Source of the DNA: an uncultured Candidatus Saccharibacteria bacterium
Lineage (GTDB): Bacteria > Patescibacteriota > SICC01 > CAYSOT01
Direction of reading: 5' to 3'
Assembly (NCBI GenBank): GCA_964432765.1
Contig: CAYSOT010000001.1
Coordinates: forward strand, 66,096-130,095
Length of the DNA: 64,000 bases
This document shows, piece after piece, positions 3,639 through 51,400 of this stretch. The position numbers and the translations under genes were made by a program. The stretch's first letter is position 1; every line of letters begins with the position of its first letter. The notes beneath the pieces were generated by a model. It made no database searches, was not told the DNA's origin, and worked only from the letters and a program-made list of their open reading frames with translations.

Positions 3639-5222
3639 CTACGCCTTCCGGAACCGCCTGAGAAGTACTTTTGCTTCTGGCAAACCCATTCTGTTTGTAA
3701 GCCACAGATAGACCGCGGCCCCGAGCAAAGATCCAACCACCAGCTGCGTAAAGAAGTAAGCGAAGGTAAATCGACTTGAGATTTCCTCGACCAAGAACGC
3801 GACGCCATAGAGACTTCCATAGATAACGACACCCATAACCAGCGAGGCAACAAGCATTTTGGTGACAGCATTGATCATGGCCTGGTCTTCAAGCTGCGGC
3901 ACTTTGGCTGACAAGAAGAAAAAGAGGAGCGAAAGCTGCACAATACTGGCGATCGTGAACGACACCGCTAAGCCGACAACCCCGAGATAGTGCGACGCAA
4001 TTAGCGCTAGGGCGATATTCAGCAGCATACACAACCCGGAAATAATAACTGGCGTCTTGGTGTTGCGTAGAGAATAGAAGGCGCGTGTAAGTAGTGGGAT
4101 CAGCGCTTGGGCGAAAAGACTGACCGCCAATATACCGAGCAGTGAGGTGACATAGCGCGTGTCGGTAAAGTCGAACTTTCCTGAACCAAACGCGACACGA
4201 ACGATTTGGGCGCGCAAAAGCATCATTGCCACTGAGGCTGGAATCACGACGTAGAGAATATTTCGGATCACTTCAAGTAGTGTCGCGAGAAACTTATCGG
4301 TATCGCGCACGCTCGCAGCTCGCGCCAGCACCGGAAATGCGGCGGTCGCAAAAGATGCGCCGACGACTCCGACGGGGATCATCGAAAGACTTGTGGCAAG
4401 CATGAACTGGGAAAGAGAGCCGGGGCGCAGCGTTGTGGCGATTACTGTTTCGATCAAGAGATTAAACTGCAGAATCGCTACGCCGATGGTCGTTGGGATC
4501 ATCAAGATGAATATTCGGCGCACACCCGGGTGTTTAATCTCAAGCACAGGGCGGAACCGAAACTTCGTCCGTACCACCCCAATCAGCTGAACCACCATTT
4601 GCAAAAACGCACCCGAAACAACGCCGATTGCGAGCCAGACCAGACCGTACCTTGGAGCTAGTAGTGCGCCGATGATAATACCAACGTTGTAAATAAGCGG
4701 CGCAATGGCATAGGCCAAGAAACGTTGGTAGGTATTGAGAATGCTGCCAAAGATACCCGACAGACCAAAGAAGATTGGTGAAAGCAGCATGATCCGAGTG
4801 AGTAAGACGACTTCATCGAGCTGCGAAGGCGTAAAACCTGGCGCAACAAGAGGCATGATCTGTGGCGCAAAAATGGCAATAATGCTTGCCGCAAAGATGA
4901 GGACGATCAGCGCAAGCGTCAGAATAGTGGAGCCGACATTGTCTGCTTCACGTTGCTGATGTTTAGCAACATAGCCAGCAAATATTGGGATGAAGGCAGC
5001 CGAGATTGCACCCCAAACGAGAATGTTGAAGACAAAGTCCGGAACTCGAAAAGCCGCATAATAAATATCGAGTTGTGGCCCGGCGCCAAAACCAGACGCC
5101 AGCAAGCGATCGCGCACCAACCCAAGCACACGTGACGCGAGCGACGCGGAGGCAAGAATAACAGTCGCCCCGCCGATCGTGGCAGTAAAGATAGAAAACC
5201 GATTGAGTGTTCGTTTAATCAC
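3639..5222 (-). CDS. murJ: Lipid II flippase MurJ/MviN
   Basis: The 527 aa polytopic membrane protein begins with the MurJ-typical TATIGGATVILASASLASRVLGLVRDRLLASGFGAGPQLDIYYAAFRVPDF. Confidence 0.85.
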   Translation of the reverse strand: MIKRTLNRFSIFTATIGGATVILASASLASRVLGLVRDRLLASGFGAGPQLDIYYAAFRVPDFVFNILVWGAISAAFIPIFAGYVAKHQQREADNVGSTILTLALIVLIFAASIIAIFAPQIMPLVAPGFTPSQLDEVVLLTRIMLLSPIFFGLSGIFGSILNTYQRFLAYAIAPLIYNVGIIIGALLAPRYGLVWLAIGVVSGAFLQMVVQLIGVVRTKFRFRPVLEIKHPGVRRIFILMIPTTIGVAILQFNLLIETVIATTLRPGSLSQFMLATSLSMIPVGVVGASFATAAFPVLARAASVRDTDKFLATLLEVIRNILYVVIPASVAMMLLRAQIVRVAFGSGKFDFTDTRYVTSLLGILAVSLFAQALIPLLTRAFYSLRNTKTPVIISGLCMLLNIALALIASHYLGVVGLAVSFTIASIVQLSLLFFFLSAKVPQLEDQAMINAVTKMLVASLVMGVVIYGSLYGVAFLVEEISSRFTFAYFFTQLVVGSLLGAAVYLWLTNRMGLPEAKVLLRRFRKA

Positions 5223-9476: not shown

Positions 9477-11929
9477 GCAAATCCATCAGCCACCAGGCGG
9501 AAGTACTGTCGATATGGCTGCACCCTGGCAGAAACAGTGCTTGCATCGAGTGCGACCATGAATCGGGCGGTCTCTCCTGGGTCTATTTGGTTATTTGAAT
9601 CGGCGACCACGGTCCCTCCGACCACCTTGCCAGCCATGAATGTCCCGACGCGATACCGTGTCAGCCAGTTGTCGGTGTCAGTTGGCAGTTGACCACCACT
9701 AAGGCCAATTGCCGCAAATGGTGAATTTTGGTCCATAGGCGTTGGTGCAAGACTGACAACCCCGCCACGTACCCACGGATATGTACCGGTATTTTTGAAG
9801 TCTACGAATATACTTCCGTAAGGACTGGTGGCTTTAGTAATAGTTGGAAACGCTGATTGACCAGCCCACTGCGCCCTGTAGCCCTGAGAGATAGACACCG
9901 GCCAGTAAATGCCGCTGTCATTAAGCCAAGCTTTTCCATCTACAACGAGATTGAAGAACTCGGCTGCAGCATATGGCCGATTCGGGCTCAGAGCCTGGAA
10001 AACGAATGTGGCTGCTTCGCCAGGCTGAACACTCGTCGCTGTATTGTCGTACGTTACATTGCCGCCACCATCACGTATCGGCTGGCCGGAACCATCCAAA
10101 TACGTCTTGCCAGCAAATGTTCCGATGCGGTGTGGCCCTTGCCAACTTGGATCCGCAATACCGCTACTGCGATCATTCGGCCTACTTGTACCGATCCGGA
10201 TAGTGTTGGCATCACCCGTATTAGTCCAGGCAACATTCCCGGTATTCTTGATGGTTAGAGAAAGTGTCGATGGCGTATTTGGTAGATTTGAGACGCTTCC
10301 GCTCTGTGTGAGCCACTGATATGAGAAACTGTCCGGTACGTTTGTAACAGTCCAGTAGATTCCAAGGTCGCGGCTAAACCAGGTGAGCCCTTCGGCGAGG
10401 GGACGATAATAAACCGCGTGCGTTCCGCTGAACGTACCGCCGCGCAGTGTGAAGCTGAACCTGGCAATTTCTCCTGGGGCAATCGACGTGGCGGAAGAGG
10501 TGGTCTTTGAGCCATCGCCGTTAATCGTGACTTTTTCAGTGAATGTGCCGGGACGAGCTGGATTAACCCAAGACGGATCGGCAAAACCGTCTGGCCTATC
10601 CCGATAGCGATCGGTACCGAGACGGACTGGGTTTGCCCCAGAGTTTTGCCAGGTGGCTAGACCTTCATTTTTCAGATCGAGATACACACTCGCAGTCTGT
10701 CCTGTGCGAAGTGTGAGCGTGCTACCCGAGCTGCCGTTTACTCCCTGCCCCTGGTAGGAATAGTCGTAATTACGGAATCCCATGTAATACGAAACGTAGT
10801 CATTGGTGCGATTCCGCACATTGCCAAGCTGGGCGTATTCGTACTGACCCGGACAAGCAGTGCTTGTATAGTCACGGTGCCCACTAAGCATATATTGAGT
10901 ACGTCCACTTGAATCTACGTAGGTCCGCCACGGTGCAAGGTTTGCCTTTGACATTAAGTATCCCGCGATATTGCTGACACTCTCATTAAGCTGCCCATAG
11001 GGCTGGCTAACGTCGAAGTTGCCAATCGTTGCAATGCCGGCACTATAGCGATTGAAGCCAAGTGTATGGCCCCCCTCAACAACAACGTTGTTAGTATTCG
11101 CAAAAGCCGCGTCGAAGTAACGACCCTGGAAAATGTTCCCTGAAACATCAACGAGATAATTGTAGCCAATATCTCCCCAGCCCTGATTGACGGCGTGGCT
11201 CTGCCAAATGCTCCGTACTGCGGCCGCACCATTTGGCGGATTGCCAGCTGTCACCGTATGGTGAACCATCACGCGCTGCAGAGCCCAATATTCCGGTGTC
11301 CAACTCGGTGAACTCGTCGCTTCAGGACACCCCCACTCTGCCCGAGAAATGATCCGCGGCGCTACATCAGCCGCCTTCGCCCGGGAAACTAAACTCGTTT
11401 TCTTGGCCGTCGGGTCTGGCCCTACACTGGCATCGATAAAGCTGAATCGGGGATTCTTGAAACTGACGGTCTGGCCTTCGCCATTCAAGCTGGCTCGATA
11501 CTGTACGTCTTTGGCACCATCGGCCAAGACAAACCCCGAATGTGCTCCATTGACCGGGGCAGTATCGGGGCGATCCTCGTCATCAACCGTCACCCAATCC
11601 GTCCAGCCCGTCTTGGTCTGGACACGAACTTGAACTTCGACTGCGTCGTGAGCGCCATCTTGATCCCACTGAAGTGCCACACCCGTTGTGTGTGCTTGTT
11701 CAGTTTTCACTGGCTGCGCCTCATAGCTGAGTGCTCCACTCGTTTTGAGCTCGGCACCACCTCCTAGATTCTCTCCACTTGTCACGCGACCTTCAGCGAG
11801 ATTGCCTTGTTTGTAGGACTGCTTAATATCGGCCTTAGTAGGTGAACCATCGGTAAGCAACAGCCCAACCGAAAGCGCCCCGAGTAGAGCTGCCGAGGCA
11901 ATGATAACTGTACTAAGTTTTTGTTTCAT
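9431..11929 (-). CDS. Secreted multidomain N-acetylmuramoyl-L-alanine amidase (PGRP/Amidase_2 domain) with four C-terminal ~110-aa repeat modules
   Basis: Signal peptide: MKQKLSTVIIASAALLGALSVG. Amidase_2 core: WGCPE...VMVHHTVT...GWGDIGYNYLVDVSGNIFQGRYFD...EGGHTLGFNRYSAGIATIGNF...GHRDYTSTACPG. After this come four repeats, each containing a (R/T)xGTF ... ADPSW ... FxF pattern. Confidence 0.8.
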   Translation of the reverse strand: MKQKLSTVIIASAALLGALSVGLLLTDGSPTKADIKQSYKQGNLAEGRVTSGENLGGGAELKTSGALSYEAQPVKTEQAHTTGVALQWDQDGAHDAVEVQVRVQTKTGWTDWVTVDDEDRPDTAPVNGAHSGFVLADGAKDVQYRASLNGEGQTVSFKNPRFSFIDASVGPDPTAKKTSLVSRAKAADVAPRIISRAEWGCPEATSSPSWTPEYWALQRVMVHHTVTAGNPPNGAAAVRSIWQSHAVNQGWGDIGYNYLVDVSGNIFQGRYFDAAFANTNNVVVEGGHTLGFNRYSAGIATIGNFDVSQPYGQLNESVSNIAGYLMSKANLAPWRTYVDSSGRTQYMLSGHRDYTSTACPGQYEYAQLGNVRNRTNDYVSYYMGFRNYDYSYQGQGVNGSSGSTLTLRTGQTASVYLDLKNEGLATWQNSGANPVRLGTDRYRDRPDGFADPSWVNPARPGTFTEKVTINGDGSKTTSSATSIAPGEIARFSFTLRGGTFSGTHAVYYRPLAEGLTWFSRDLGIYWTVTNVPDSFSYQWLTQSGSVSNLPNTPSTLSLTIKNTGNVAWTNTGDANTIRIGTSRPNDRSSGIADPSWQGPHRIGTFAGKTYLDGSGQPIRDGGGNVTYDNTATSVQPGEAATFVFQALSPNRPYAAAEFFNLVVDGKAWLNDSGIYWPVSISQGYRAQWAGQSAFPTITKATSPYGSIFVDFKNTGTYPWVRGGVVSLAPTPMDQNSPFAAIGLSGGQLPTDTDNWLTRYRVGTFMAGKVVGGTVVADSNNQIDPGETARFMVALDASTVSARVQPYRQYFRLVADGFAWLEDFGVYEDITVR

Positions 11930-12035
11930 TATGGGAAAATACCACCATTAAGGTATTTTTGCAAATAGAGGAGAGACACAATCCCATTCTAGTAAGGTCT
12001 CTCTACGATTGCGAGCGGGCAACAAGGCCAAGATG

Positions 12036-12108
12036 TGGCAGTGGGTGGATTCGAACCACCGACCAACAGCTTATGAGTCTGCTGCTCTAACCACTGAGCT
12101 ACACTGCC
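12036..12108 (-). tRNA. tRNA with CAT anticodon (elongator tRNA-Met or tRNA-Ile2)
   Basis: RC = GGCAGTGTAGCTCAGTGGTTAGAGCAGCAGACTCATAAGCTGTTGGTCGGTGGTTCGAATCCACCCACTGCCA. It folds as a cloverleaf: G1-C72 closes a 7-bp acceptor stem, a T-arm GGTGG/CCACC is present, and the anticodon loop is cuCAUaa. The CCA end is not encoded. Confidence 0.85.
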
Positions 12109-12183
12109 GGGTTTAGACGCCAAAGCGGCGCACATCAAGTATGCCGAGCTTCGGGATGAACCTCAAGCGTGCTGCCAACCTTG

Positions 12184-12255
12184 TAGCGGGGGCAGGACTC
12201 GAACCTGCGACCTCGTGGTTATGAGCCACGCGAGCTGCCACTGCTCCACCCCGCA
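12184..12255 (-). tRNA. Initiator tRNA-fMet (CAT)
   Basis: RC = TGCGGGGTGGAGCAGTGGCAGCTCGCGTGGCTCATAACCACGAGGTCGCAGGTTCGAGTCCTGCCCCCGCTA. It is very similar to E. coli tRNA-fMet (CGCGGGGUGGAGCAG...CCCCCGCAACCA). Position 1 is unpaired with 72, as expected for an initiator, and the anticodon stem carries G-C pairs. Confidence 0.85.
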
Positions 12256-12305
12256 TCGTGCGTACGTCGTACGGTACCTTATGGTACCTCCTCCATAGCG
12301 CTCTA

Positions 12306-12710
12306 TCAAGCGTTGTGACTACCAAAGAAGTAGCGCCACCATGCCTCTGGGTTCGACGGGGGCGGTGTTGGCTTTGTCTCGATTCCTGGACGAGTAAGGT
12401 TTGAAGAGTCATCACCTGTCGGCATCGGCACTACGATCACTCTCTCACCAGGTTTTTGATAGTTTAGTCTGGTCCGGGCTTCTTTTTCTTTAAACGAATC
12501 TGTTCGGTAATACGCGGTTAAGTTCTTAAGCTGGGTGTTTTGCTCTTCAAGCGAGCTTATCTCATTCTTTAGAGAAATTCTGTCTTGGTGAATTCTGTAG
12601 TTTTCAACGATCAGCTTTACCGACCCGAGCAGTAGATAGCCGATCACAATAAGAGCAAAGATATTGCCGGAACGTTGCCTGATCCATGAACTGATGTTTG
12701 ATTTCGCCAT
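12306..12710 (-). CDS. ftsB: Septum formation initiator (FtsB/DivIC-like) protein
   Basis: It has a single N-terminal TM helix (IFALIVIGYLLLGSV) and a coiled-coil segment ISLKNEISSLEEQNTQLKNLTAYYRTDSFKEKEARTRLNYQKPGE. The KEKEAR...LNY..PGE tail is typical of FtsB/DivIC. Confidence 0.65.
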   Translation of the reverse strand: MAKSNISSWIRQRSGNIFALIVIGYLLLGSVKLIVENYRIHQDRISLKNEISSLEEQNTQLKNLTAYYRTDSFKEKEARTRLNYQKPGERVIVVPMPTGDDSSNLTRPGIETKPTPPPSNPEAWWRYFFGSHNA

Positions 12711-12742
12711 ACGGCTCTAGCCTACACTACCGAATCGTCTTG

Positions 12743-12815
12743 TGGGCCCGCTAGGACTTGAACCTAGGACCTACCGGTTATGAGCCGGCTGCTCTAACCA
12801 CTGAGCTACGGGCCC
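12743..12815 (-). tRNA. tRNA with CAT anticodon, resembling tRNA-Ile2 (lysidine, LAU)
   Basis: RC = GGGCCCGTAGCTCAGTGGTTAGAGCAGCCGGCTCATAACCGGTAGGTCCTAGGTTCAAGTCCTAGCGGGCCCA. This is a good cloverleaf and is strikingly similar to E. coli ileX (GGCCCCUUAGCUCAGUGGUUAGAGCAGGCGACUCAUAAUCGCUUGGUCGCUGGUUCAAGUCCAGCAGGGGCC). The choice between Met and Ile2 identity is not certain. Confidence 0.8.
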
Positions 12816-40141: not shown

Positions 40142-41008
40142 CTACATTAAGTCTTTGAGCAGAGGGGCGAGCTTGGGCGCACTTTTTCTAGCCGCCAAAG
40201 GCGCCTTAAGATGTTCAATCTCCTCGGTATAAACCGGTCGTTCTTCGGTGTAGATAATTCCGATTGGCAGCTCGTCGCCCCATTTATGGGCCTGTTGGTG
40301 TGCCGCTTCGTGCGAGGCCGGATTATAGTCGGCTAGATCATCAAGTTTATAGAGACGTTCTCGGTAGTAGTCATACGTTTGAACGTGATTAAACGTCACA
40401 CATGGCTGAAATACATCTACAAGGCTGTAGCCTTGATGCTGCATCGCTGACTTTATCAACTCCTTGAGATGATTGTGTTCTCCGGCAAACCCTCGCGAAA
40501 TAAATGAAGCACCCGCCTCAAGCGCCAACCCCAAAGGGTTCACTTGGCGTTCTATCACTCCATCAGGTGTCGATTTTGTCTTAAATCCCTGCTCTGAGGT
40601 CGGGGACGTTTGTCCCGTCGTGAGTCCGTAAATCAAGTTGTCGTGAACGATATGTGTAATGTTGTGGTTTCCACGCATTGCATGAATCCAGTGGCTAAGC
40701 CCTTCGCCGTAGTTGTCTCCATCTCCGTTAACCACCAGAACCGGCAGGTCGTGGTTTGCGAGCTTGGCTCCGATTGCCGTTGGCAGTGCCCGACCATGGA
40801 GGGCATGAAACCCATAGGCATTCAAAAAGGAGCACATGTTGCCACTGCAGCCGATTCCATACACTACGATCAGCTCATGAGGTGCGATCCCAAGCTCCGC
40901 GAGCGCTTGTTTGATAGCACCCCAAATAGACCAGTCACCACAACCGGGACACCACGTAGGAAATACTTCCGTCTCAAAATCAGTGGCTACTAGTCTTTTC
41001 TTAGCCAT
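40142..41008 (-). CDS. korB: 2-oxoacid:ferredoxin oxidoreductase, beta (TPP-binding) subunit
   Basis: FETEVFPTWCPGCGDWSIWGA...GIGCSGNM is the KorB/PorB thiamine-diphosphate binding fold. The TPP motif is GDGD-x-Y. Confidence 0.85.
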   Translation of the reverse strand: MAKKRLVATDFETEVFPTWCPGCGDWSIWGAIKQALAELGIAPHELIVVYGIGCSGNMCSFLNAYGFHALHGRALPTAIGAKLANHDLPVLVVNGDGDNYGEGLSHWIHAMRGNHNITHIVHDNLIYGLTTGQTSPTSEQGFKTKSTPDGVIERQVNPLGLALEAGASFISRGFAGEHNHLKELIKSAMQHQGYSLVDVFQPCVTFNHVQTYDYYRERLYKLDDLADYNPASHEAAHQQAHKWGDELPIGIIYTEERPVYTEEIEHLKAPLAARKSAPKLAPLLKDLM

Positions 41009-42905
41009 GCATGACTCCTTCTATTGCTTCGACGACTTCTTCTGGGTAGATTGGCCGACCATCGTATTTAAGGAGTCGGTTAGTAAGATTAATACCGGTT
41101 TGCTCCCGAATGAGACCGCCGAGTTGACCCGTCATGTTAGTTTCTACAAGCAAGGTTGATGCCGAATCCGTAAGCAGTGTTTCTACAATCTTCTGAGGAA
41201 AGGGCCAAATCGTCTTGAGCTGCAAGAACCGCGTCTGGATACCGCGAGCCGTAAGGTGTTTTTGTGCTTCGAGAATCGCTCCCTTCGTCGAGCCCCAAGA
41301 AACAATCGTTACCTCTGCATTTTTGGGGCCGTAAAGCTGGGGTGCGGGGACACTTTTTTGCAATTCTGGGAGCTTGGCAAATCGTTTTTGCATCATCGCT
41401 ATCCGCACCTTTGCATCTTCGGAGCTATAGCCAAATTCGTCATGCTCATCAGAATTAGCCATGAAGATACCGCCTTCTTGCCCAGGAAAACTACGTGGGC
41501 TTACGCCATCTTCCATTAGTTCGTATCGCTTGAATCGACGTTTCATTTTTTTAAGCGCCGCGTCTGTGACAACTTTTCCGCGGTTAACCTTCGGTGCACT
41601 AGCGAAAGGCAGTGTCGTCCAATGAGATTCGTTAAGATACTTGTCGGTCAAAACAAAGACTGGGAGCTGATACATGTCGGCCAGGTTGAATGCTTCCGCA
41701 GTCATCAGAAATGCTTCGTCGACGTCACCTGGAGCAAGTATGACTCGGGGAAACTCGCCTTGCGCCGAATGCAGCACGAACCGCAAATCTCCCTGATCCG
41801 TCCAAGTTGGCAAACCCGTTGCTGGCCCGGGTCGCATCGCTTCCATAATTACCAGCGGGGTTTCGGTAATTGCCGCAAGTCCAAGCGCTTCGACCATCAA
41901 GGCAAAGCCGCCACCCGCTGACCCTGTCATAGCTCGCGCTCCAGCAAATGAAGCACCAATTGCCTGGTTTATAGCCGCTATTTCATCTTCGGCATGTTTC
42001 ACGACCATACCGAGCGCCTCTTGGTTCGCTGCGAGATAGTGCATCACCGGTGTCGCAGGAGTCATTGGGTAAGCCGAGTAAAAGGTACACCCTGCTGCTG
42101 CTGCTCCAAGGGCAAGTGCCTCTGCACCAGTGACGGCAATTTGTGCCGATTTCTTCTTAAGTGGTGCGAGGGAGTAGCTAAACTGCTCGGGATATGTGTC
42201 TAGGACATATCGATATCCCGCCGCAGCAGCGGCTTTATTTGCATCAATAGCGGCTTGTTTCTTCTTTGCACCAAAAACATCTTCGATCACTGCTTCGAAA
42301 AGCGGTAAGGGATATCCGCATAGTGCTAAAAACGCTCCAAGCGCGACAGTGTTGCGCATGAGCTTCTGTCCCGCCGCCTCAAGGGCTAGCGACTCTAGAG
42401 GAACACCATAGTGTCGCAGTGAAGGACGCGATAAATCGCCGTGATCGATTGTGATCTCGTCGCTGTCATAAAGAATTGCCCCGTCATCGGTCAGTTCATG
42501 CTCATGTAGAAACACCGTCGCTTTGTTGAGCGCCACTAGTACGTTGATTTTTCCAAGCGCAGCATGGACTTGCTCTTCATCGACACGTAGCAAGAACGTG
42601 TTGTGCCCGCCGCGAATTAATGAGGGGTATTCCGTGTAGTCAAAGACACTTAGACCGCCACGGGAAAGCGTCTTGGTTAGCAAAAGCCCTGAAACAGCGA
42701 TACCGAACCCGGCTTCGCCGCCAATTTTCACGGTAAGTCGATTTGGTCGCGGGCGACTCTGCTCATCAGTTGCAGCAACCGACGGGGTGTCGTGACGAGG
42801 ATCACGAGGATACGTATAGGGATGAGGGGCTCCGGCTCGCCGACTTGCTGGAGCAAGTGCTGTTTCACGCTGTGCGCGTGCCCCCTTTGCACTGCGCTCT
42901 TTCAT
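41001..42905 (-). CDS. korA: 2-oxoacid:ferredoxin oxidoreductase, fused gamma-alpha subunit
   Basis: The N-terminal gamma-like domain is KIGGEAGFGIAVSGLLL, followed by an alpha domain (AAAGCTFYSAYPMTPATP). It overlaps korB by 8 nt. Confidence 0.85.
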   Translation of the reverse strand: MKERSAKGARAQRETALAPASRRAGAPHPYTYPRDPRHDTPSVAATDEQSRPRPNRLTVKIGGEAGFGIAVSGLLLTKTLSRGGLSVFDYTEYPSLIRGGHNTFLLRVDEEQVHAALGKINVLVALNKATVFLHEHELTDDGAILYDSDEITIDHGDLSRPSLRHYGVPLESLALEAAGQKLMRNTVALGAFLALCGYPLPLFEAVIEDVFGAKKKQAAIDANKAAAAAGYRYVLDTYPEQFSYSLAPLKKKSAQIAVTGAEALALGAAAAGCTFYSAYPMTPATPVMHYLAANQEALGMVVKHAEDEIAAINQAIGASFAGARAMTGSAGGGFALMVEALGLAAITETPLVIMEAMRPGPATGLPTWTDQGDLRFVLHSAQGEFPRVILAPGDVDEAFLMTAEAFNLADMYQLPVFVLTDKYLNESHWTTLPFASAPKVNRGKVVTDAALKKMKRRFKRYELMEDGVSPRSFPGQEGGIFMANSDEHDEFGYSSEDAKVRIAMMQKRFAKLPELQKSVPAPQLYGPKNAEVTIVSWGSTKGAILEAQKHLTARGIQTRFLQLKTIWPFPQKIVETLLTDSASTLLVETNMTGQLGGLIREQTGINLTNRLLKYDGRPIYPEEVVEAIEGVMHG

Positions 42906-43243
42906 GTTGCCGCCAGACCTGGGTGTGAAAGTAGTGCTTCGCGGACTACCTCGAGCCTCGAGGGCAATTCGAGCGCCCTGAGCTCATCGGCAAATTGGCT
43001 GCGCTCGTCGGCAAGTAAGCCAGTGTCATTCGTTAAACCAGCCCAGGCTGTAAGCCACACCTCTTGTGACTCTGGCTCTTCATGGCTGAGCGCCCAGACC
43101 ACCTCTGCTATTGCCGCGTCTTCCATTACGACAGATTCCGCGGATCTTACGAGCCTGAGGCTACTTGGGTGGGGTGTTACGTCCGCGCCCTGTGTACTTG
43201 TTTCTGGCCTGCCCATTGCTGTAAGCATACCTTTTATAGGCAA
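42902..43243 (-). CDS. Hypothetical protein (113 aa) co-transcribed upstream of korA
   Basis: A 4-nt overlap with the korA start points to operon membership. No motif is recognised. Confidence 0.35.
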   Translation of the reverse strand: MPIKGMLTAMGRPETSTQGADVTPHPSSLRLVRSAESVVMEDAAIAEVVWALSHEEPESQEVWLTAWAGLTNDTGLLADERSQFADELRALELPSRLEVVREALLSHPGLAAT

Positions 43244-43275
43244 CGAGTTGAAAGCTCTCCTGCTACAATAGCTCC

Positions 43276-43932
43276 GTGCCTAAAAAAACGCATATCATCA
43301 TGGATTTCGACCGGACAATTCTCGACACCGGCAGTTTAAGTAAGGGCATGTATGAAGCAGTGCGGGGTTTTGGAATAAGCCGGGAAAAGTGGAACAGTGC
43401 ACTGGCGGAACGAGGAGAAGAAAATATACTACGAATCGAAAGGTTGGCGGAGCAACTGAATCCACGCAAACCGGGTCATCTTATAGACGCCCTACAGAAA
43501 GAAATTAGCGATGCAACGTGGTATCTGTATCCGGACGTTAGACCCTTTTTGTCTTTTGTGTCACAGCATGCTGAACTTCATCTTTTGACGCTAGGCGATG
43601 CTGATTTTCAGCGCTCTAAAATCGAAGCAACCGGAATCGCTTCCTTTTTTAGTACCATCACAACCACCGAGAAGCCAAAGCATGAACTAAAAAATTTACC
43701 TGTTTCGACTGTCGAACACGGGATCTTCATTAACGACAGCATCCAAGAAACACGCGACATGGCAGGTGTATATCGCTGGGCAAAACACCTCCATATCAAC
43801 CGTGATGGCGTTCAGCTTCCGCTCGACTTTCCATTCAAGAGTTTTCAGAACCTAGTTGAATTACAGATATACCTTTCGGAGCTATTGGATGTTCAGGTTG
43901 CTACTAATCAAGCCGATCAGATACCCAATTAG
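43276..43932 (+). CDS. HAD-superfamily hydrolase
   Basis: The N-terminal motif I is HIIMDFDRTILDT, which is DxD/T. Confidence 0.6.
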   Translation: MPKKTHIIMDFDRTILDTGSLSKGMYEAVRGFGISREKWNSALAERGEENILRIERLAEQLNPRKPGHLIDALQKEISDATWYLYPDVRPFLSFVSQHAELHLLTLGDADFQRSKIEATGIASFFSTITTTEKPKHELKNLPVSTVEHGIFINDSIQETRDMAGVYRWAKHLHINRDGVQLPLDFPFKSFQNLVELQIYLSELLDVQVATNQADQIPN

Positions 43933-44502
43933 AGCAGCACTTCCACCAAGCAGAAAGAATTGGAGTGCGCTTTTACGAAGCGATGTCTTAGTCGCAACGC
44001 CCTTGAATATGCCGACCATAATAAATGTGATGGCCCCAAGCACCACGGTGACCTTTGCCGCCGTGGCCGGCTCAAGTCCAAAAAAGAATGGAATGAGCGG
44101 GATCATGCCACTAATTACGTAGACGACCCACATCACCCCGGCAGCAACAAACGGGTTTGCGAGCACCGAATCGATGCGGTGTTTATCATGTTGATCCAGC
44201 GACAACCTAAAGTAGTCATCTTCTGAGGTGCGCGAAAGATACGTTCCGGTCGACATGGCAAAGGCACTCGTGAAAACATCGACGAGAACGGCCAAAATAA
44301 TCAACCGATTTGAAACGAGTGATGCTGTGAATCCGGTAATGATGCCGATGTTAGTCAGAAGAGCATCGTTGGTTCCAAACACAATATCACGTATGAATTG
44401 TCCGGCTACAGGTGTTTTTTCATTGTTGTTTGCCATGTTGTAAGTATACGCGTGAAGAGAAAAAGAAGCGCGGCGGTTGGGTCTCTGGATGAGATGTTCC
44501 AA
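43882..44502 (-). CDS. VIT1/CCC1-family (DUF125) iron/manganese transporter
   Basis: FGTNDALLTNIGIITGF and later TM helices match the VIT family. The start may be Met at about 44436. Confidence 0.65.
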   Translation of the reverse strand: MEHLIQRPNRRASFSLHAYTYNMANNNEKTPVAGQFIRDIVFGTNDALLTNIGIITGFTASLVSNRLIILAVLVDVFTSAFAMSTGTYLSRTSEDDYFRLSLDQHDKHRIDSVLANPFVAAGVMWVVYVISGMIPLIPFFFGLEPATAAKVTVVLGAITFIMVGIFKGVATKTSLRKSALQFFLLGGSAALIGYLIGLISSNLNIQ

Positions 44503-44522
44503 CCGCCGCGCGGTAGAGGTTT

Positions 44523-44873
44523 TTACCTTCTGCGTCTTGTCCGGACTCCGAGCCCAAGATGAGGATCGAGGGTGACGATTGCCAGGATGAACAGAAGGCT
44601 GAAGCCGACGAAAGCGGCACGTGCAATGACGGCGATACTGCCATCTCCGGAGAGATATGCAACTGCCCAGACTCCTAGCGCCGCCAGAGCGCCGAAGAGT
44701 GGGATCGCCATCGCGACCGCTGCGATGTTGTCCGTCAGCTCATCCGGCGCGAACATCGCGATGATTGCAAGCGCCAGGATGCCGGCATAGACACCCCAGG
44801 GAGCCTCCTGCGCGACTGCCACGAGGAAGGCGAAGAGGATGCCCAGGAGCAGCCAGCTGCGCACTGACTTCAT
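44523..44873 (-). CDS. Hypothetical small membrane protein on GC-rich island
   Basis: It has three or four hydrophobic helices, about 65% GC against about 48% in the neighbours, and the RBS AAAGGTAGG upstream. Confidence 0.5.
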   Translation of the reverse strand: MKSVRSWLLLGILFAFLVAVAQEAPWGVYAGILALAIIAMFAPDELTDNIAAVAMAIPLFGALAALGVWAVAYLSGDGSIAVIARAAFVGFSLLFILAIVTLDPHLGLGVRTRRRR

Positions 44874-44938
44874 GCTTACCTACCTTTCAACGAGCCTGGA
44901 CGAAGAATACGTCTTGTGCGAAATGGCGGCAAGTAGAC

Positions 44939-45283
44939 CTAGCGGAAGCTGTGCCCTCCCTTGCCGCTGAAGCCGCGGCGATTCGGGCCACGGAAGCGCG
45001 CATCGGGAACGGGCCGCTTCGGCATCTGCTGGTGCGAGTCGCTGATCACGACGCGACGCAGGACGGGCTCTGCGTTGCTGGCACCGGGCTCGTGACCCTC
45101 CGTGGTCACCTCTTCGAGCGTCATCTCACCGGCGAGGATGAGATCGACGAGACTGCGGATCTGGTTGACTGGAACGCCGGCCTGCAGCAGTCGCCGGTTG
45201 AGTTCGACACGCTCAGCGAGCATCTGCGAACGTGCGTCGTCGGTGTGGACCACAACGCCAGTGATGGTGTCGATGGTGGTCAT
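44939..45283 (-). CDS. Hypothetical protein on GC-rich island (Arg/Gly-rich C-terminus)
   Basis: MTTIDTITGVVVHTDDARSQ...RFRGPNRRGFSGKGGHSFR is about 65% GC with high third-position GC, which is unlike the rest of the window. Confidence 0.45.
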   Translation of the reverse strand: MTTIDTITGVVVHTDDARSQMLAERVELNRRLLQAGVPVNQIRSLVDLILAGEMTLEEVTTEGHEPGASNAEPVLRRVVISDSHQQMPKRPVPDARFRGPNRRGFSGKGGHSFR

Positions 45284-45775
45284 GGGGGTGTACTCACTTT
45301 CATTCGGGGAACGATACTGCCCACTAGCAACGATGATTCGTTACCGGTGAGCAGTATCGTCTATGCCTACATGATGCTAAGGTGCTGCCTTGACAGGGTG
45401 CTGCCAAAGCCATCAAAGGTACTATATTTTCCCTTTATTGTCAATAAAAATAGACTTCACCAATAGAAAGAACGCGAAGTATTTGGAGATAACTTCGCGC
45501 TCATGCGCACGCTAGGATGGGAGAATGTGGCGGTGCCGGAGAGGGGGCAGGGGATGATTCCTCTCCGGCACCAGCCGTTTACCGCCAGGGTCGTTGTTGC
45601 TCGGGAATACGGGGACCAGGGGGTCCGGCGTGCTCTCGAGTGGCGCGGATTCCGTGGCGGAGCCTGTCGACGTCGGCGCGATCGTGATGACCAGGGCCAT
45701 CTGGACGATGGGCAAACGCCCGGTTGGGGACAGCCTCTTGCTGCCTGTCGTCGTTTCGCCGATCATCCATGATCG

Positions 45776-46030
45776 TTACACCTGGCCGTGATACCGCGGT
45801 GCCGCCTTCGAAGCGTCGGGGATGAGCCCGACGAGACAGGCCGTCATCTGCAGCATCGACTGCTTTGCCGGCGGACCCTCGACTCGCGAGACGTAACCGC
45901 AACCGCGACAAACCCGAAGGCCGTTGCGCTCGTTGTGGATCCGGTCCGTGCCGCACTGCGCGCAGTGCTCTCTCGTCTCGAGAATTGGCTCGAACCCGGT
46001 TCGGATTTCGGTACTACAGGTTTGGACCAT
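45776..46030 (-). CDS. Hypothetical zinc-ribbon protein (CxxC...CxxC), GC-rich
   Basis: The motif CAQCGTDRIHNERNGLRVCRGCG is present. Overlapping alternative ORFs exist on both strands, so this may be a gene remnant. Confidence 0.3.
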   Translation of the reverse strand: MVQTCSTEIRTGFEPILETREHCAQCGTDRIHNERNGLRVCRGCGYVSRVEGPPAKQSMLQMTACLVGLIPDASKAAPRYHGQV

Positions 46031-46105
46031 AACCGCTCCCGGTTGTTGAACGTGCTGGTTGCATGCTACGCCCCTGGAAGAACTAGGGCAAGAATGCCAT
46101 ACTGA

Positions 46106-46873
46106 TTGTTGATGAACTCAACTAATGCCATTTCGGTAAAGAATCTGCGGAAGCAGTATAAAGATGGTCCTGAAGCGCTTAAAGGGATCGATTTAGAAAT
46201 TGCTGAAGGCGAATTTTTTGGTTTGCTTGGCCCAAACGGTGCCGGTAAATCAACTCTCATTCATTCCATCACCGGCCTTGCTATTCCAACTAGCGGGGAA
46301 ATTTCTGTGTTTGGCCACGATGCGGTAAAGGATTACCAGCATGCCCGCAGCTACGTCGGTCTCGCTCCGCAGGAGCTGAATTTGGACTGGTTCTTAACCG
46401 TCGAGGAAACACTTGATTATCACGGCGGCTATTTCGGGATGCAAAAACCAGATCGTAAAAAGCGTATCACTGAACTACTCGAAGCGTTTTCACTTTCAGA
46501 TAAGCGTAAAACTAACATTCGGATGCTCTCCGGCGGCATGAAACGACGGCTTGTCATAGCACGTGCCCTTATGCACGAACCTCGAATGCTGATTCTTGAT
46601 GAACCAACTGCTGGGGTTGATGTTGAGCTACGTCTTGAGCTTTGGCACTACATGCGCGACGTCAATAAATCCGGTACAACCATTCTGTTAACGACGCACT
46701 ACATCGAAGAAGCTGAGGAGCTGTGCAGCAGGATAGCCCTGATCAACCATGGCCAGCTTGTTCAAATTGGCACGACCGCTGAACTAAAGAAGGAATACGG
46801 CAAGAAGACGCTTGAAGACGTTTACCTCCAGGTGGTAGGCCGAGAAGAGCTGGCAAGGACGGCAGAAGTATGA
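46106..46873 (+). CDS. ABC transporter ATP-binding protein (ABC-2/DrrA-like)
   Basis: Walker A: GPNGAGKST. ABC signature: LSGGMKRR. Walker B: LILDEPTAGVD. Confidence 0.9.
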   Translation: MLMNSTNAISVKNLRKQYKDGPEALKGIDLEIAEGEFFGLLGPNGAGKSTLIHSITGLAIPTSGEISVFGHDAVKDYQHARSYVGLAPQELNLDWFLTVEETLDYHGGYFGMQKPDRKKRITELLEAFSLSDKRKTNIRMLSGGMKRRLVIARALMHEPRMLILDEPTAGVDVELRLELWHYMRDVNKSGTTILLTTHYIEEAEELCSRIALINHGQLVQIGTTAELKKEYGKKTLEDVYLQVVGREELARTAEV

Positions 46874-47640
46874 AATTACTTCCTTCAATCCGCTTCCGAA
46901 CGATGCTTCGCCGAGAAGTCACGAGGTTCTGGCTTATAAAACGACAGACTATTCTCACACCACTGCTTGAGACATACCTCTACATTGCCGTCTTTGGCGC
47001 ATCACTGGGGTCTCGCGTTGGCGAGCTCAACGGTGTTCCCTACCAGACGTTCATCCTGCCTGGATTAATCATGATGGCGATGGCGATGAACTCATTTGCC
47101 AACAATGTCGCCAGCGTCTTCCAGCAACGTTTTCAGCGCGCCATCGACGACCAGCTTACATCGCCACTTGCTAACATCGAGCTCGTGACGGCCTTTACCC
47201 TTGGCGGATTTCTGCGTGGAGCGATTGTCGCGACCGTAACGTTCCTCACAGCAAGTACATTTGTTGATCTTCCAATTACTCATCCTCTACTATTGCTGGC
47301 AAGCCTGACACTGATTGGTTTATTCTTCGCAATGCTCGGCGTCTTGCTCGGCACCATAGCCGAAAGTTTTGATAATATCTCTCTCTACCAAAGCTTTATT
47401 TTGCAGCCGCTCATCTTCCTTGGCGGAGTCTTCTATTCTGTAACACTGCTCCCAGAACCCTTCAAGACGATTACGCACTTCAATCCCGTTTTTTACATGA
47501 TCAATATGGTCCGCTACGGATTTCTTGGTAAAGCCGATGTACAACCATGGCTCGCATTAAGCATTTTGTTCATAATCGTTGCTATTCTCTATCTCGCACT
47601 GCTGCGGCTCTTCAAGTCCGGCTATAAGCTACGTTTTTAA
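46870..47640 (+). CDS. ABC-2 type transporter permease
   Basis: It has six TM helices and overlaps the ATPase gene by 4 nt. Confidence 0.8.
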   Translation: MKLLPSIRFRTMLRREVTRFWLIKRQTILTPLLETYLYIAVFGASLGSRVGELNGVPYQTFILPGLIMMAMAMNSFANNVASVFQQRFQRAIDDQLTSPLANIELVTAFTLGGFLRGAIVATVTFLTASTFVDLPITHPLLLLASLTLIGLFFAMLGVLLGTIAESFDNISLYQSFILQPLIFLGGVFYSVTLLPEPFKTITHFNPVFYMINMVRYGFLGKADVQPWLALSILFIIVAILYLALLRLFKSGYKLRF

Positions 47641-47656
47641 GTCACTCAAAGCGAAA

Positions 47657-47697
47657 GTGGCAGACAAGTCTCAGGGTGGTGAGGGCTTGTCTGCCAC
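47657..47697. terminator. Long hairpin (12-bp stem GTGGCAGACAAG/CTTGTCTGCCAC, 17-nt loop) after ABC operon; possible terminator
   Basis: The inverted repeat is read directly. There is no clear T-run on the plus strand, but the segment is T-rich on the minus side. Confidence 0.35.
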
Positions 47698-47958
47698 TGG
47701 GCGCGTCTTCATGAAGTGCGAGGGGTCCTTCTGGTGACGGGTCGGCGGATCGAAGGGCGGGTGGTCGGAGCGGGTCGCGCATTGCGTCGCTTTTCCTCCA
47801 GCTTCCTTCTGCGTCGCTCTTCCATCACCATCGCTACCTTCTTCTTCTGCACGTGAGTCCTTCCTCTGTAGACACGGTCGAAGCGCAAAACCTATCATAC
47901 CGTGACCAAAGGCTCGTGTCATGGCAGCACGTCTAGAAATATGAAGTTTCGCTTGTGA

Positions 47959-48456
47959 TTATTTCTGAACGGACGAGGTGGCTCGGCGTGGAGTAAACGT
48001 CTTCTTGACCCAATCAGTAACCAGCGAATGTTGATGTTCAGGAAAACCATCAACACGCAAAGGCTCGCCAAGCGGTTGTCCACCGATGTCCCGAATCAGT
48101 GCTATGAGGTGATCAGCACTCGCGCAGAAGTTACTGTATTCATGGCGTCCTAGCGAAAACACGGCGACTGGCTTACCGGCAAGGTCCGCGCCAGCACGAA
48201 GAAGCTCGGCAAACTTGAACCACTGACTTGGGAGCTGGCCTTCAGTCAAACCAACGCCGATATCTGTCAGCCAGGTATTAGATCCGAAAACCAAGAGTTC
48301 GGGGGCATCAACCGCGTGCGGATCAAGATGCGTGACATCGGCTACAGTAACTTCGTATTTTTTTTGAAGCGCTTCGCCAATCCATTCGGCCACCATTTTG
48401 GTATTCCCCGAGTTTGATCCATAAACGATGAGTGCTCTTTGGCGCGCCATGCTCAC
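47959..48456 (-). CDS. Flavodoxin
   Basis: ALIVYGSNSGNTKMVAEWI is the flavodoxin FMN phosphate-binding loop. The protein is 165 aa. Confidence 0.8.
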   Translation of the reverse strand: MSMARQRALIVYGSNSGNTKMVAEWIGEALQKKYEVTVADVTHLDPHAVDAPELLVFGSNTWLTDIGVGLTEGQLPSQWFKFAELLRAGADLAGKPVAVFSLGRHEYSNFCASADHLIALIRDIGGQPLGEPLRVDGFPEHQHSLVTDWVKKTFTPRRATSSVQK

Positions 48457-48468
48457 ACCCTACCAGAA

Positions 48469-51400
48469 TCAGTGATGTTCTGGCATATGGAAGCGTCTGC
48501 GCACCTTTTCTGAAAGCCGCCGGAAAGCAATGTACATGATCGGAGAAACAAACAACGACAGGAAACCAGACGTAAGCAAGCCAAACATTACGACTACGGC
48601 TAGCGAGCGATAGAACGGAGCAAATACGGCCAGCGGCGTGAGTGAAAAAAGCGCCGTTAACTTAGTCAGAATGATTGGCCGGAAACGGATGCCGGAAGCG
48701 TAGGTAATCGCCTCTTTGTCGTCCCAACCATCGCGAACTTTGTGGTTCGCGAGGTCCATCAAGAAGATCGCCACATTTACGACGAGTCCGACAAGGATAA
48801 TCAGGCCTATAATCTCCAAGAAGCCAAACTGGCTACCACCAACGAAGGCGAGCGCTGGGAAGACGCCAATAAATGTCAGAGGGATGGCAAAGAGAATAAT
48901 CAGCGGCTGCAGAAGCGAGTTGAAGAAAATTACGAGGCTGAGGTAGATCAGCAATATTGCGAGCAGTAGGGCGAGCCCAAGCTCTGTAAACGACTTCGCA
49001 ATCGATGCGACATCACCTTCGGAGTAGTTTTCCACTACTACATCTCTGTACTTAGAAGCGTAGTCTTTCTTGAATGCATCAATCGCGGCTTTTTGGATCA
49101 TTGCGTTGGTTTGCTGATCATTAACATCGCCGGTTGGCTTGGCCTTAACTACTCCGACGGTTTCGCCTTTAACACGCGTTATTGAACCAAGTGACGGTAC
49201 TTGCGATATATTTGCGACGCTGCCCAGCGCAACCGCTTGACCGGTCAGTGTTGGGACGGGTGTCGCAGCAAGTGCCTCGATAGTAGTAGGCTGCGGTACA
49301 GCAAGCTTCACAACGACATCCAAATCTTCGCCAGTATCGTTGACGGTTGTTACCTTCTTCCCATCGTTGAGACCATACAGACTGGCGAGCGTTTGACGCA
49401 CTGCAAGCGGCTGAACTGGTATCGCGGCGGTCTTTGCTGGATCAAGCTTAACTTCTACAAACGTTACTGGTCTCGAATCAAATCCGTTGTCGACCCGCGC
49501 TACGGCCTTTTGGTCAGTTGGGCAGTCTGCCTTAACCACATATGATGAGCCCTCTTTACAGACCTGCGTGAGAATTGTGCCGAGATCTTTGGATACCGAC
49601 TCTTGTGTGGTTAGGTTCTCGGTCTTAATTCCTATCGAGATCGGGAAATTAGATGTACTTGGACCAGCTCCGGCAACACCCGAAGTGATCTCAAAGAATC
49701 TATTCTGAATTGAACTCTCCTTGAGACGCCCAGTTATGCCGTTGTTAATTTCTTCGGCAGAAATCTTTCGTTCGTTTAGATCCGTCAAACCAATCACGTA
49801 CGTGTTTTCACTCGGTGACGTGGCAAACTCTTGCAGAGGTGTAACGTAGCGCACCTCTGATGATTTCATGACCGCCTGCACTACGGCTTCAGTGTCTTGC
49901 CGTCGCTGCTCAGCGGTGCGTTGTGGATATGGAATTGTCGTGAGGATGAGATAGTTGGCTTCTTTTGATTTCGCGAACTGGACAATTTTTAGTGCACCTG
50001 TGCCGATCATGACCTGGGCTATTAGAACCGGAACTATAAGAGCGCTGATTACGATAAGTGATCGTTTCCATTTGGCTGAATGCAAAATCTTCTTGTTAGT
50101 TCGCATCATCCAGCGTGCTGCCGGCCAAAGATTCTCTTCTTCGGCAGTCTTCGCACCAGGTCGTCGGCGCAAGAATCGTCTCGCTACTGGAGCCAAGAAA
50201 ACCAGCGGAACTACGTATGAAGCAAGAATCGCCGGAATAACCGTCAGTGGAATATAGGAAATAATTTCACCAAAGACACCTGAAACGACGCCAAATGGCA
50301 CAAAGACGAGCGTCGAACAAAGAACCGCCATAAAGAGTCCACCACCGATCTCGTTGATTGCGGCGAGAACGGCTTTGGTTCCCTTCAGCCCAGCGTCCAC
50401 CTTACGCTGAATCACTTCCAGCACTACAAGTGCTGGATCAACCACCAGTCCAATCACCAGTACCAGCGAGAAGAGTACGAGTGTGTTGAGTTCATTGCCG
50501 GTAAGCCAAATCAGAATCGTCGAGAAGAAGAACGACAATGGTATCGCCAACGCTGAAAGAATTGCCGCTCGCCAGGAGACAAGCAGAAGCATGATTACAA
50601 AGACAAGCTGGATACCACCGAAGAGATATCCAACCCACCCAATTGGTCCGAGATTCCAGTCTCGACCAAATAGACCTGTTTTGATCTCTTTTACCTGCTC
50701 GCGATTATCCGCGGCCGTATCGAAGGCTGTAACCGTCTCATAGCCTTCTAGCTGTTGCTTCGTTTCTTGTGGGAGTGCTTGGTATTCCGAAGATGATTGA
50801 TCAAAGTACTTTTTCAGAAGCGCTTGCAGTCTCTCGTCATAAGTACCAAGGTTTTCTCCATCGGCTACGTCGATTGAGAAGATAACGCCTTGTGCGAATC
50901 GTTGTTCGCCATTTTGGCGATACCCAACCCATGAAAGATTCGGTTCTTCATAGGTGTATGTGTCCTGAATCGTGCCAAGATCACGAAGCGCGACGACACT
51001 GCCCGGCTTGGAGGGCGAAAGGATTGTCAAATTTCTTAAGTCGGTAACTGATGCTCCGCCCGTCGAAAGTAGGATGTTGGTTTCTTTGCCGTTTAGCTCC
51101 GCATTATCCGTAACGGGTATTTGCAAGCCGAAACCTTGCAGCTGTGAAGTAACATCGCTGGGTGAAAGCCCTGCCGCTGCCAGCTTGGCGGGATCCAGCG
51201 ATACGGTGTATTGTTTTTCAAACGTATTAGAGAAATTCACGGCCGCTACAGCTGTGTCTTTCTCTATCTCGCGCTGAAGCAATTTCGTGACTTGATATGC
51301 ACGTGCCAGATCGGCCTGACCATTCCTCGGCACTACTGCGAAATAGTATTCGTCTGAACTGACTTTCGGCGTGAAGATTGTCGGCTTTTCTGCACCATCC

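Follow-up and report, generated by a model that had tools for sequence, protein, structure and literature searches.

In the model of Lawrence and Ochman, laterally acquired islets of ORFan genes ameliorate toward the composition of the host genome. Patescibacteria, whose genomes are tiny, are thought to gain few genes. The locus described here is a GC-rich islet in a 64-kb stretch of DNA (referred to as the window; contig CAYSOT010000001.1) of an uncultured Candidatus Saccharibacteria bacterium. The islet is bounded at approximately 44455-46105, with both edges in intergenic DNA between the gene for a VIT transporter and the operon of a YadGH-like ABC-2 exporter, and it encodes four small minus-strand proteins in two transcription units. 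It is well delimited and clade-restricted, an ORFan islet whose lateral origin is probable, to judge from its composition and its substitution patterns. On balance, it appears to be an old acquisition from a GC-richer, unsampled donor, which is now ameliorating at a fixed locus within a small clade.

The islet shares with ameliorating ORFan islets an atypical GC content, GC content at third codon positions (GC3) and oligonucleotide usage, as well as sharp intergenic borders. Its genes are small, fast-evolving, without homologues and patchy among relatives, and their substitution flux is directed from GC to AT, toward the host level. Unlike such islets, it carries no integrase, tRNA, repeat or phage remnant, and no donor was found for it. 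It also differs in that three diverged lineages carry it at a single fixed locus, and in a neutral divergence that is half that of its flanks in the distant pair, suggesting a spread after the lineages had split. Compared with the classical integrase-mediated genomic island, the islet shows the compositional deviation and the patchy presence. Of integrases, recombinases and transposases there is no trace among the islet open reading frames (ORFs), which are only four and small, and none of which matches a recombinase family. No significant direct repeats flank the islet, and the nearest tRNA gene is more than 20 kb away, in agreement with the original prediction, which had reported neither integrase nor flanking repeats. 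A still-ameliorating islet in three lineages offers a concrete case in which to study the gain and retention of accessory genes without mobile-element machinery.

The composition of the islet is the most extreme within the window. The GC content reaches 0.603 over 44510-46080, compared with 0.509 elsewhere, so that the rise described in the original prediction is real, but the measured value is somewhat lower than the about 65% given there. Local GC climbs from about 0.45-0.50 to 0.61-0.70 inside two blocks, which are separated by an AT-rich intergenic spacer (Table 1). The 500-bp GC maximum of the whole 64 kb, 0.65, lies inside the islet (window mean 0.512, standard deviation 0.029), and in tetranucleotide usage the islet ranks first among the window outliers (z = 5.7); the proposed GC and tetranucleotide scan therefore returns it as the strongest outlier. 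The GC bias of the third codon positions is likewise evident, with GC3 values of 0.70 for mem116, 0.80 for p114 and 0.75 for zn84, against a mean of 0.500 (standard deviation 0.039, maximum 0.598) in the 51 genes of the window that encode 150 aa or more. The predicted abrupt change between the VIT gene and the ABC operon holds as well: over their first 30 codons the flanking genes have a GC3 of 0.37 (VIT) and 0.40 (ABC), which makes the borders sharp. A recombination tract reaching into the flanks was rejected, as neither VIT nor ABC shows a GC3 tail. A second GC-rich patch at 2450-3150 (about 0.60) was also rejected as an island. It corresponds to the Pro/Ala/Arg-rich linker of FtsK (ORF 1538-3616, minus strand), and is GC-rich because of its amino-acid content.

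The islet is a genuine chromosomal segment and not an assembly chimera. Contigs from six different metagenome samples match its sequence at 99.8-100% identity, and one of them, L001, covers 44321-46452 of the window and thus both islet junctions. The locus is also found in two further lineages. In the first, represented by L009 together with seven contigs like it, the sequence runs colinear with the window over 40206-48527, through the islet, at 75.5% nucleotide identity. In a third lineage (L017, L018 and L019), approximately 90% identical to L009, the islet occupies the same locus. Its GC content in L009 and L017-L019 is 0.63-0.71. A recent acquisition is not supported, as the islet is colinear and equally GC-rich at the same place in these two lineages. 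The original prediction had regarded orthologues of native-like composition throughout the lineage as evidence against an acquisition; one half of this was found, since orthologues do occupy the locus, and the other half was not, since their composition is not native-like.

The gene models were settled by comparing the window with these two sister lineages. All four islet genes show codon-periodic substitution and a ratio of nonsynonymous to synonymous substitution rates (dN/dS) of 0.14-0.40, which indicates purifying selection; their ORF lengths are maintained in three lineages, and the proteins evolve 5-10 times faster than those of the neighbours. Unit A consists of zn84 and p63, and Unit B of p114 and mem116. 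The coordinates of these genes and of the associated signals are collected in Table 1.

Table 1. Features of the GC-rich islet in window coordinates. Mismatch phase counts are given for coordinate mod 3 (0/1/2), window versus L009. Promoter-like sites were read from the alignment of these two sequences; both score under the threshold of the consensus scan and are putative.
Feature	Coordinates	Strand	Description
GC-rich block 1	44455-45283		GC 0.62
Unit B intrinsic terminator	44455-44520	-	13-bp perfect GC stem (arms 44499-44511 and 44468-44480), then UUCUUUUU
mem116	44523-44873	-	116-aa membrane protein; mismatches 62/18/35 (third positions = phase 0); dN/dS 0.21-0.22
p114	44939-45283	-	114 aa, soluble; mismatches 31/31/47 (third positions = phase 2); dN/dS 0.34-0.40
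Intergenic spacer	45284-45511		AT-rich, GC 0.46
p114 5' untranslated region (5'UTR) hairpin	45311-45360	-	23-nt arms 45311-45333 and 45338-45360, 83% complementary
Small hairpin near predicted p114 transcript 5' end	45387-45411	-	minimum-free-energy fold, by eye
Unit B promoter-like site	45416-45444	-	TTGACA, 17 nt, TACCTT; putative
Unit A terminator-like hairpin	45459-45502	-	GCGCGAAGU...ACUUCGCG, then UUCUUUCU (U-run)
GC-rich block 2	45512-46030		GC 0.64
GC hairpin	45532-45572	-	13 bp, 100% complementary, directly after p63 stop, no U-run
p63	45579-45770	-	63 aa, Arg/Asp/Pro/His-rich; mismatch phase as described in the text; dN/dS 0.14-0.15
zn84	45776-46030	-	84 aa, zinc ribbon; mismatches 13/14/31 (third positions = phase 2); dN/dS 0.23-0.26
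Unit A promoter-like site	46063-46091	-	TTGCCC, 17 nt, TAGCAT; putative

The first gene of Unit A, zn84, carries a ribbon of the form C-x2-C-x14-C-x2-C at residues 23-44, in which C23, C26, C41 and C44 do not vary among the three lineages. The zinc-ribbon ORF had been regarded as possibly decayed, but it is intact, 83-84 aa long and with both CxxC pairs in all three lineages. The three-lineage alignment also reveals a conserved C-terminal motif, MTACLVGLIPDA..AAPRY. The AlphaFold2 (AF2) model of this protein is weak, with a predicted local distance difference test score (pLDDT) of 48, and beta-strands are predicted around both knuckles. The second gene, p63, encodes a highly charged protein, and its ATG lies 5 nt downstream of the zn84 stop. 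In the p63 region (45540-45779), 29 of the 45 mismatches fall at phase 0, which is the third position of p63. Its length and its start and stop positions are identical in L009, and the frame was picked by a gene caller in the third lineage. Since the wobble position is phase 0 across 45540-45779, two ORFs called by annotation pipelines are excluded: the 84-aa ORF 45512-45766(-), called by Logan, which has a dN/dS of 1.8 and the wrong mismatch phase, and the 89-aa ORF 45503-45772(+), called by NCBI, with the wrong mismatch phase. A 105-aa plus-strand frame (dN/dS 1.4) and a 233-aa plus-strand frame (wrong mismatch phase) were also rejected. An antisense ORF sharing the wobble position of p63 stops at 45687, yet the periodicity runs to 45779. 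By this pattern of substitutions, the uncalled 63-aa p63 is the real gene, and the 84-aa and 89-aa calls are wrong. The overlapping alternative frames noticed earlier thus resolve to a single gene, and the islet is a place where annotation pipelines mis-call genes and the real one is missed.

The products of Unit B correspond to the two clear ORFs of the original prediction, a 114-aa protein with an RG-rich tail and a small membrane protein with 3-4 transmembrane (TM) segments. p114 has a beta-hairpin at its N-terminus, then a core of three helices (residues ~17-61), a linker that is both variable and disordered, and a C-terminal tail, F-RGPNRRGF-x-GKGGHSFR, which is invariant in the three-lineage alignment and disordered in the AF2 model; pLDDT reaches 85-90 at residues 20-60. 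Hydropathy assigns four hydrophobic segments to mem116 in all three orthologues, and the protein ends in a poly-Arg C-terminus. No paralogues of the islet genes are present in the window.

These data also bear on the possibility that none of the ORFs is genuine, the GC-rich DNA being instead a non-coding element, e.g., a structured RNA, or an artefact of assembly or binning. Such doubts are understandable, as chance long ORFs are common in high-GC DNA, the pipelines disagree here (84-aa, 89-aa and 117-aa ORFs on either strand), and the islet contains several stable hairpins. However, one frame per gene shows codon-periodic substitutions with a dN/dS below 0.4, Rfam has no match that would support a structured RNA, the colinear orthologous locus recurs in two further lineages, and an artefact is contradicted by the six independent contigs, one of which crosses both junctions. 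This explanation is hardly credible and is already refuted as far as the tools used here allow.

The islet is present in some relatives, namely the three lineages, and absent from others. L007 (VIT 72% identical) and L008 (VIT 65% identical) have no islet, and both loci are rearranged; it is also missing from L021. Since all three loci are rearranged, no clean empty site was seen in L007, L008 or L021. The proposed check for relatives with VIT and ABC genes adjacent without the insert thus yielded relatives that lack the islet, but no clean empty site. L021 has a GC content of 0.59 and a GC3 of 0.65-0.79, and keeps PFOR, HAD, ABC, permease and flavodoxin genes in synteny. Between its HAD and ABC genes (4597-5124) lie a gene for an 82-aa Zn-ribbon protein and one for a 78-aa protein with two TM segments; both are divergent from ABC and of native composition. 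Homology of this pair to zn84 and mem116 is not demonstrable, and the two genes are treated as positional analogues only.

The clade is variable at this place and in its composition. At 5317-5903 of L007, a relative from Baikal, no ABC ATPase gene is present and the permease gene is reduced to an 87-aa C-terminal fragment, which stands beside an unrelated 97-aa orphan ORF. The flavodoxin-VIT interval is accordingly a rearrangement hot spot of the clade. Genomic GC content spans 0.42-0.62 and GC3 from about 0.5 to about 0.78 among L008, L007, the window, L009, L021 and L022. Composition therefore shifts fast between lineages, which complicates any inference of transfer from GC content.

The history of the islet was approached through neutral retention, defined as the extent to which identity exceeds the chance level at the four-fold degenerate sites of conserved codons. 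Between the window and L009 it amounts to 0.37 (0.27-0.47) in the islet and 0.11 (0.07-0.15) in the flanks, i.e., the four-fold divergence of the islet is about half that of the flanks. Between L009 and L017-L019 the values are 0.61 for the islet and 0.67 for the flanks. Because the retention differs only in the distant pair, the rates of islet and flanks are taken to be the same and the coalescence of the islet to be younger. Such a later coalescence suggests a spread within the clade.

The direction of change was read from third-position substitutions in both sister lineages, for which the window served as the outgroup in polarisation. In the islet, 43 changes run from strong (G or C) to weak (A or T) bases (S→W) and 13 from weak to strong (W→S), compared with 46 and 43 in the flanks. 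A GC-rich outgroup biases polarised counts, and simulation was used to correct for it. An equilibrium simulated at GC3 0.77 predicts a S→W fraction of 0.61, against an observed 0.77 (P = 0.025), whereas a simulated decay toward GC3 0.58 predicts 0.73 (P = 0.31). Amelioration thus fits the substitution flux better than a maintained equilibrium, with modest support (P ≈ 0.03).

The same figures allow a second history to be weighed, in which the islet is a native cassette that was never transferred and whose GC-richness is actively maintained, for instance through selection acting on the structure of the mRNA or on codon choice, or through GC-biased gene conversion at a site prone to recombination. 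Near-equal GC3 in three lineages, although the flanks are saturated at synonymous sites, is what this history would produce; the conserved GC-rich RNA hairpins inside the islet, the lack of a donor and the Zn-ribbon and small membrane-protein genes of L021 at the same position point the same way, and the equidistance of zn84 hints at recombination or constraint. On the other side, the flux of 43 to 13 departs from the roughly 0.61 S→W of an equilibrium. The four-fold divergence of the close pair equals that of the flanks, which speaks against a general synonymous constraint, and the alternative and antisense frames have dN/dS above 1. The L021 pair itself has native composition and no detectable homology to the islet. 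A maintained native cassette is accordingly regarded as unlikely, though it is the alternative to be taken most seriously.

Horizontal acquisition is therefore kept as the best reading of the islet, given its extreme composition, sharp borders, GC-to-AT flux and absence from L007 and L008, but a recent date for the acquisition is not supported. Several points weigh against this reading. As neither a donor nor a mobility gene, tRNA or flanking repeat turned up, the lateral case is built solely from the composition and the substitution statistics. The comparison is limited to three lineages, the outgroup used for polarisation is GC-rich itself, and the support that is left after correction for this bias is modest (P ≈ 0.03). 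Constraint could account for part of the lower synonymous divergence seen in the distant pair. The zn84 protein is about equidistant among all three lineages, and GC3 is nearly equal in them. The gene pair of L021 at the islet position could mean an ancestral slot and not an insertion, although its homology to the islet genes is undetectable. In addition, the orphan status of mem116 is weakly tested, as the word search described below missed its 61%-identical orthologue.

The sequence of events proposed for a lateral origin would be as follows. A segment would have arrived from a GC-richer donor absent from the databases, no earlier than the base of a small clade in which at least three lineages are sampled, and it may have spread between these lineages. 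Such spread within the clade would plausibly proceed via recombination at the conserved borders. The islet would then have been inherited at a fixed locus between the VIT gene and the exporter operon, with its GC content decaying slowly toward the native level. A more far-reaching proposal is that the cassette moves between Patescibacteria lineages by homologous recombination at conserved borders without mobility genes of its own, and that its four proteins, which lack relatives among roughly 6 billion sequences, form a new small membrane-associated system specific to an episymbiont clade. This proposal is speculative and rather improbable. An example of such a system might be a regulator composed of the Zn-ribbon protein and the basic peptide, coupled to the RG-tail adaptor and the 4-TM effector, with a role in host interaction or self-protection. 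The four proteins belong to the dark matter of protein space, and they are worth expressing if it is true that they mediate the contact between epibiont and host.

The original prediction placed the source of the islet in a high-GC actinobacterial host, from which an epibiont would have captured DNA. The GC-richness of the islet and the membership of the organism in Patescibacteria are in line with this source, and exchange at the locus is plausible, since the adjoining ABC operon has close relatives on contigs of 65-73% GC. Nevertheless, the four proteins have no match outside the clade (the search with mem116 being of low sensitivity), and tblastn against ~80 fetched loci, most of them contigs of 65-73% GC, returned nothing. 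Of the 39 fetched loci that extend 700 bp or more upstream of ABC, only two, L021 and L090, have a small CxxC...CxxC ORF there. The ORF of L090 lies on the same strand and is unlike zn84, so that a divergent Zn-ribbon ORF is found only in L021, a relative from the Candidate Phyla Radiation (CPR), and the high-GC contigs carry none that resembles zn84. The islet GC3 of 0.70-0.83 matches GC-richer CPR relatives (0.65-0.79 in L021) at least as well as it would match Actinobacteria. Finally, the ABC genes are native in composition (GC3 0.49-0.55), and because this composition is fully native, the islet and the ABC genes did not arrive together recently. Capture from an actinobacterial host is thus very unlikely, a GC-richer relative within Patescibacteria is the more likely donor, and the rule that GC-rich means host-derived fails on checking here.

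The ABC operon has a history of its own. Once a few from the CPR are set aside, the closest relatives of this YadGH-like ABC-2 exporter operon (46106-47640) are found on contigs of 65-73% GC (loci L023-L099), with the ATPase 66-72% and the permease 58-64% identical at the amino-acid level. On one of these contigs, a TIGR03557 F420-dependent oxidoreductase gene adjoins the operon. This identity is unusually high across phyla and suggests an old inter-phylum transfer of an operon whose composition is now native. The operon is a better candidate than the islet for an old exchange with high-GC bacteria.

The searches for relatives covered several types of databases. In Pfam, PHROG, PADLOC and NCBIfam, no match above the family cut-off was obtained for any of the four proteins, none at all for mem116, and in PADLOC-DB no family reached E <= 1 with any of them. 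A word-seeded search of 5.8 billion proteins returned only clade orthologues for zn84 and p114. For mem116 it returned the query alone and missed its own 61%-identical orthologue, which marks the search as one of low sensitivity. When a p114 profile was run by HMMER over a full set of 1.84 billion representatives, it gave the query and two rejected matches, with no credible further relative. The first of these, P0010, is a 3580-aa protein whose 33 near-identical repeats inflate the summed E-value; the second, P0011, is a CW_7-repeat amidase with an hhalign probability of 22% over 28 columns. No match to the islet proteins was obtained by tblastn in L007, L008 and L021 or in 78 other loci, or to the islet in viral contigs and, by blastn, in phage and plasmid DNA. 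To judge from these searches, the four proteins have no credible homologue outside the three sister Patescibacteria lineages.

zn84 is like C4 zinc-ribbon proteins (eL43/L37ae-type, TFIIB, A2L) in its C-x2-C-x14-C-x2-C pattern, and its best matches are ribbon families. It differs from them in scoring no more than 16 bits against cut-offs of 22-29, and in N- and C-terminal motifs without counterpart. Among the Pfam families A2L_zn_ribbon, Zn_Ribbon_TF and Ribosomal_L37ae, the best scores are 16.1 and 16.0 bits, with cut-offs of 22.9 and 29; the best PDB match has an E-value of 0.0045, and only sub-threshold Zn-ribbon families were recovered. In L009, the zn84 orthologue bears the JGI name "ribosomal protein S27AE", which is very probably an artefact of the Zn-ribbon. 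Among the closest known systems are also the CW_7 and UBA-like three-helix bundles; for CW_7 (PF08230), p114 has no Pfam match at E <= 1 and only the 28-column hhalign alignment mentioned above. Unlike CW_7, it has no signal peptide by eye, which makes a role in cell-wall binding unlikely.

In its organization, the islet resembles two-gene toxin-antitoxin or defence modules: small, fast-evolving gene pairs with putative promoters of their own, an inverted repeat upstream and an accessory setting. Unlike such modules, it encodes proteins for which PADLOC, Pfam and NCBIfam gave no match. The islet may act in defence or as a toxin-antitoxin system, but no library supports this. With low confidence, zn84 and p63 may be a small nucleic-acid-binding pair at a divergent promoter region shared with the ABC exporter. 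As a similarly tentative assignment, p114 and mem116 may represent a cytosolic adaptor with an invariant basic tail and a 4-TM membrane protein, and the expression of this second pair may be tuned post-transcriptionally by its 23-bp 5'UTR hairpin, although confidence in this is equally low.

Each unit carries a promoter-like site, Shine-Dalgarno sequences and a hairpin terminator. The Unit A promoter-like hexamers are conserved in L009 (TTGCCG, 17 nt, TAGCAT), where the corresponding Unit B site reads TTGACA, 17 nt, TAATCT. The Unit A site stands back-to-back with the ABC transporter start (46106/46112), and the intergenic identity between the window and L009 is 83%. At the end of Unit A, the stem of the GC hairpin is identical in L009, and the terminator-like hairpin is conserved there as well; the fold of 45450-45585 has z = -4.8. 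In L009, a hairpin of different sequence, GGCTTTGGCT/AGCCAAAGCC (by eye), occupies the place matching that of the small hairpin near the p114 transcript 5' end.

Upstream of p114, the original prediction had listed a 14-bp inverted repeat at 45307-45356. The repeat exists but is longer, with the 23-nt arms given in Table 1. The outer 10-11 bp of this hairpin, ACGATACTGC(C)/GGCAGTATCGT, are conserved in sequence, whereas the inner stem varies with pairing kept: 94% of cells are paired, and two pairs are changed on both sides, although with n = 3 lineages the statistics are weak. The fold is stronger in the sense RNA (z = -6.0) than in the antisense (z = -3.1). Unlike a short-spaced operator, the inverted repeat acts in these comparisons as an RNA hairpin, as its G·U pairs are valid on the sense strand only and its inner stem and spacing vary.

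The Unit B terminator lies just upstream of the VIT start. Its arms are 100% complementary, its fold has -35.9 kcal/mol and z = -5.9, and its sequence is almost invariant between the window and L009. That this conserved terminator might be a VIT riboswitch was considered and rejected, as the element is missing upstream of VIT in L007 and L008 and has no Rfam match; Rfam gave nothing at gathering score and only chance-level matches at E <= 10. A -10-like hexamer stands 6-7 nt upstream of the VIT start codon (window 44436-44450; L008 ~10005-10027), TATACT in the window and L009 and TATAAT in L008. This arrangement suggests that the VIT mRNA is leaderless or near-leaderless, with a putative promoter overlapping the conserved terminator of the islet.

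Elsewhere in the window, the interval from HAD to PFOR contains a further small orphan gene that evolves fast, at 42902-43243 (-). It encodes 113 aa (93 aa in L009), has 67% nucleotide identity and no family match, and coincides with a mildly GC-rich patch (0.58-0.60) adjoining an Arg/Pro-rich N-terminal extension of PFOR (~42740-42905). Three tRNA-Met (CAT) genes are clustered within 800 bp on the minus strand at 12035-12815.

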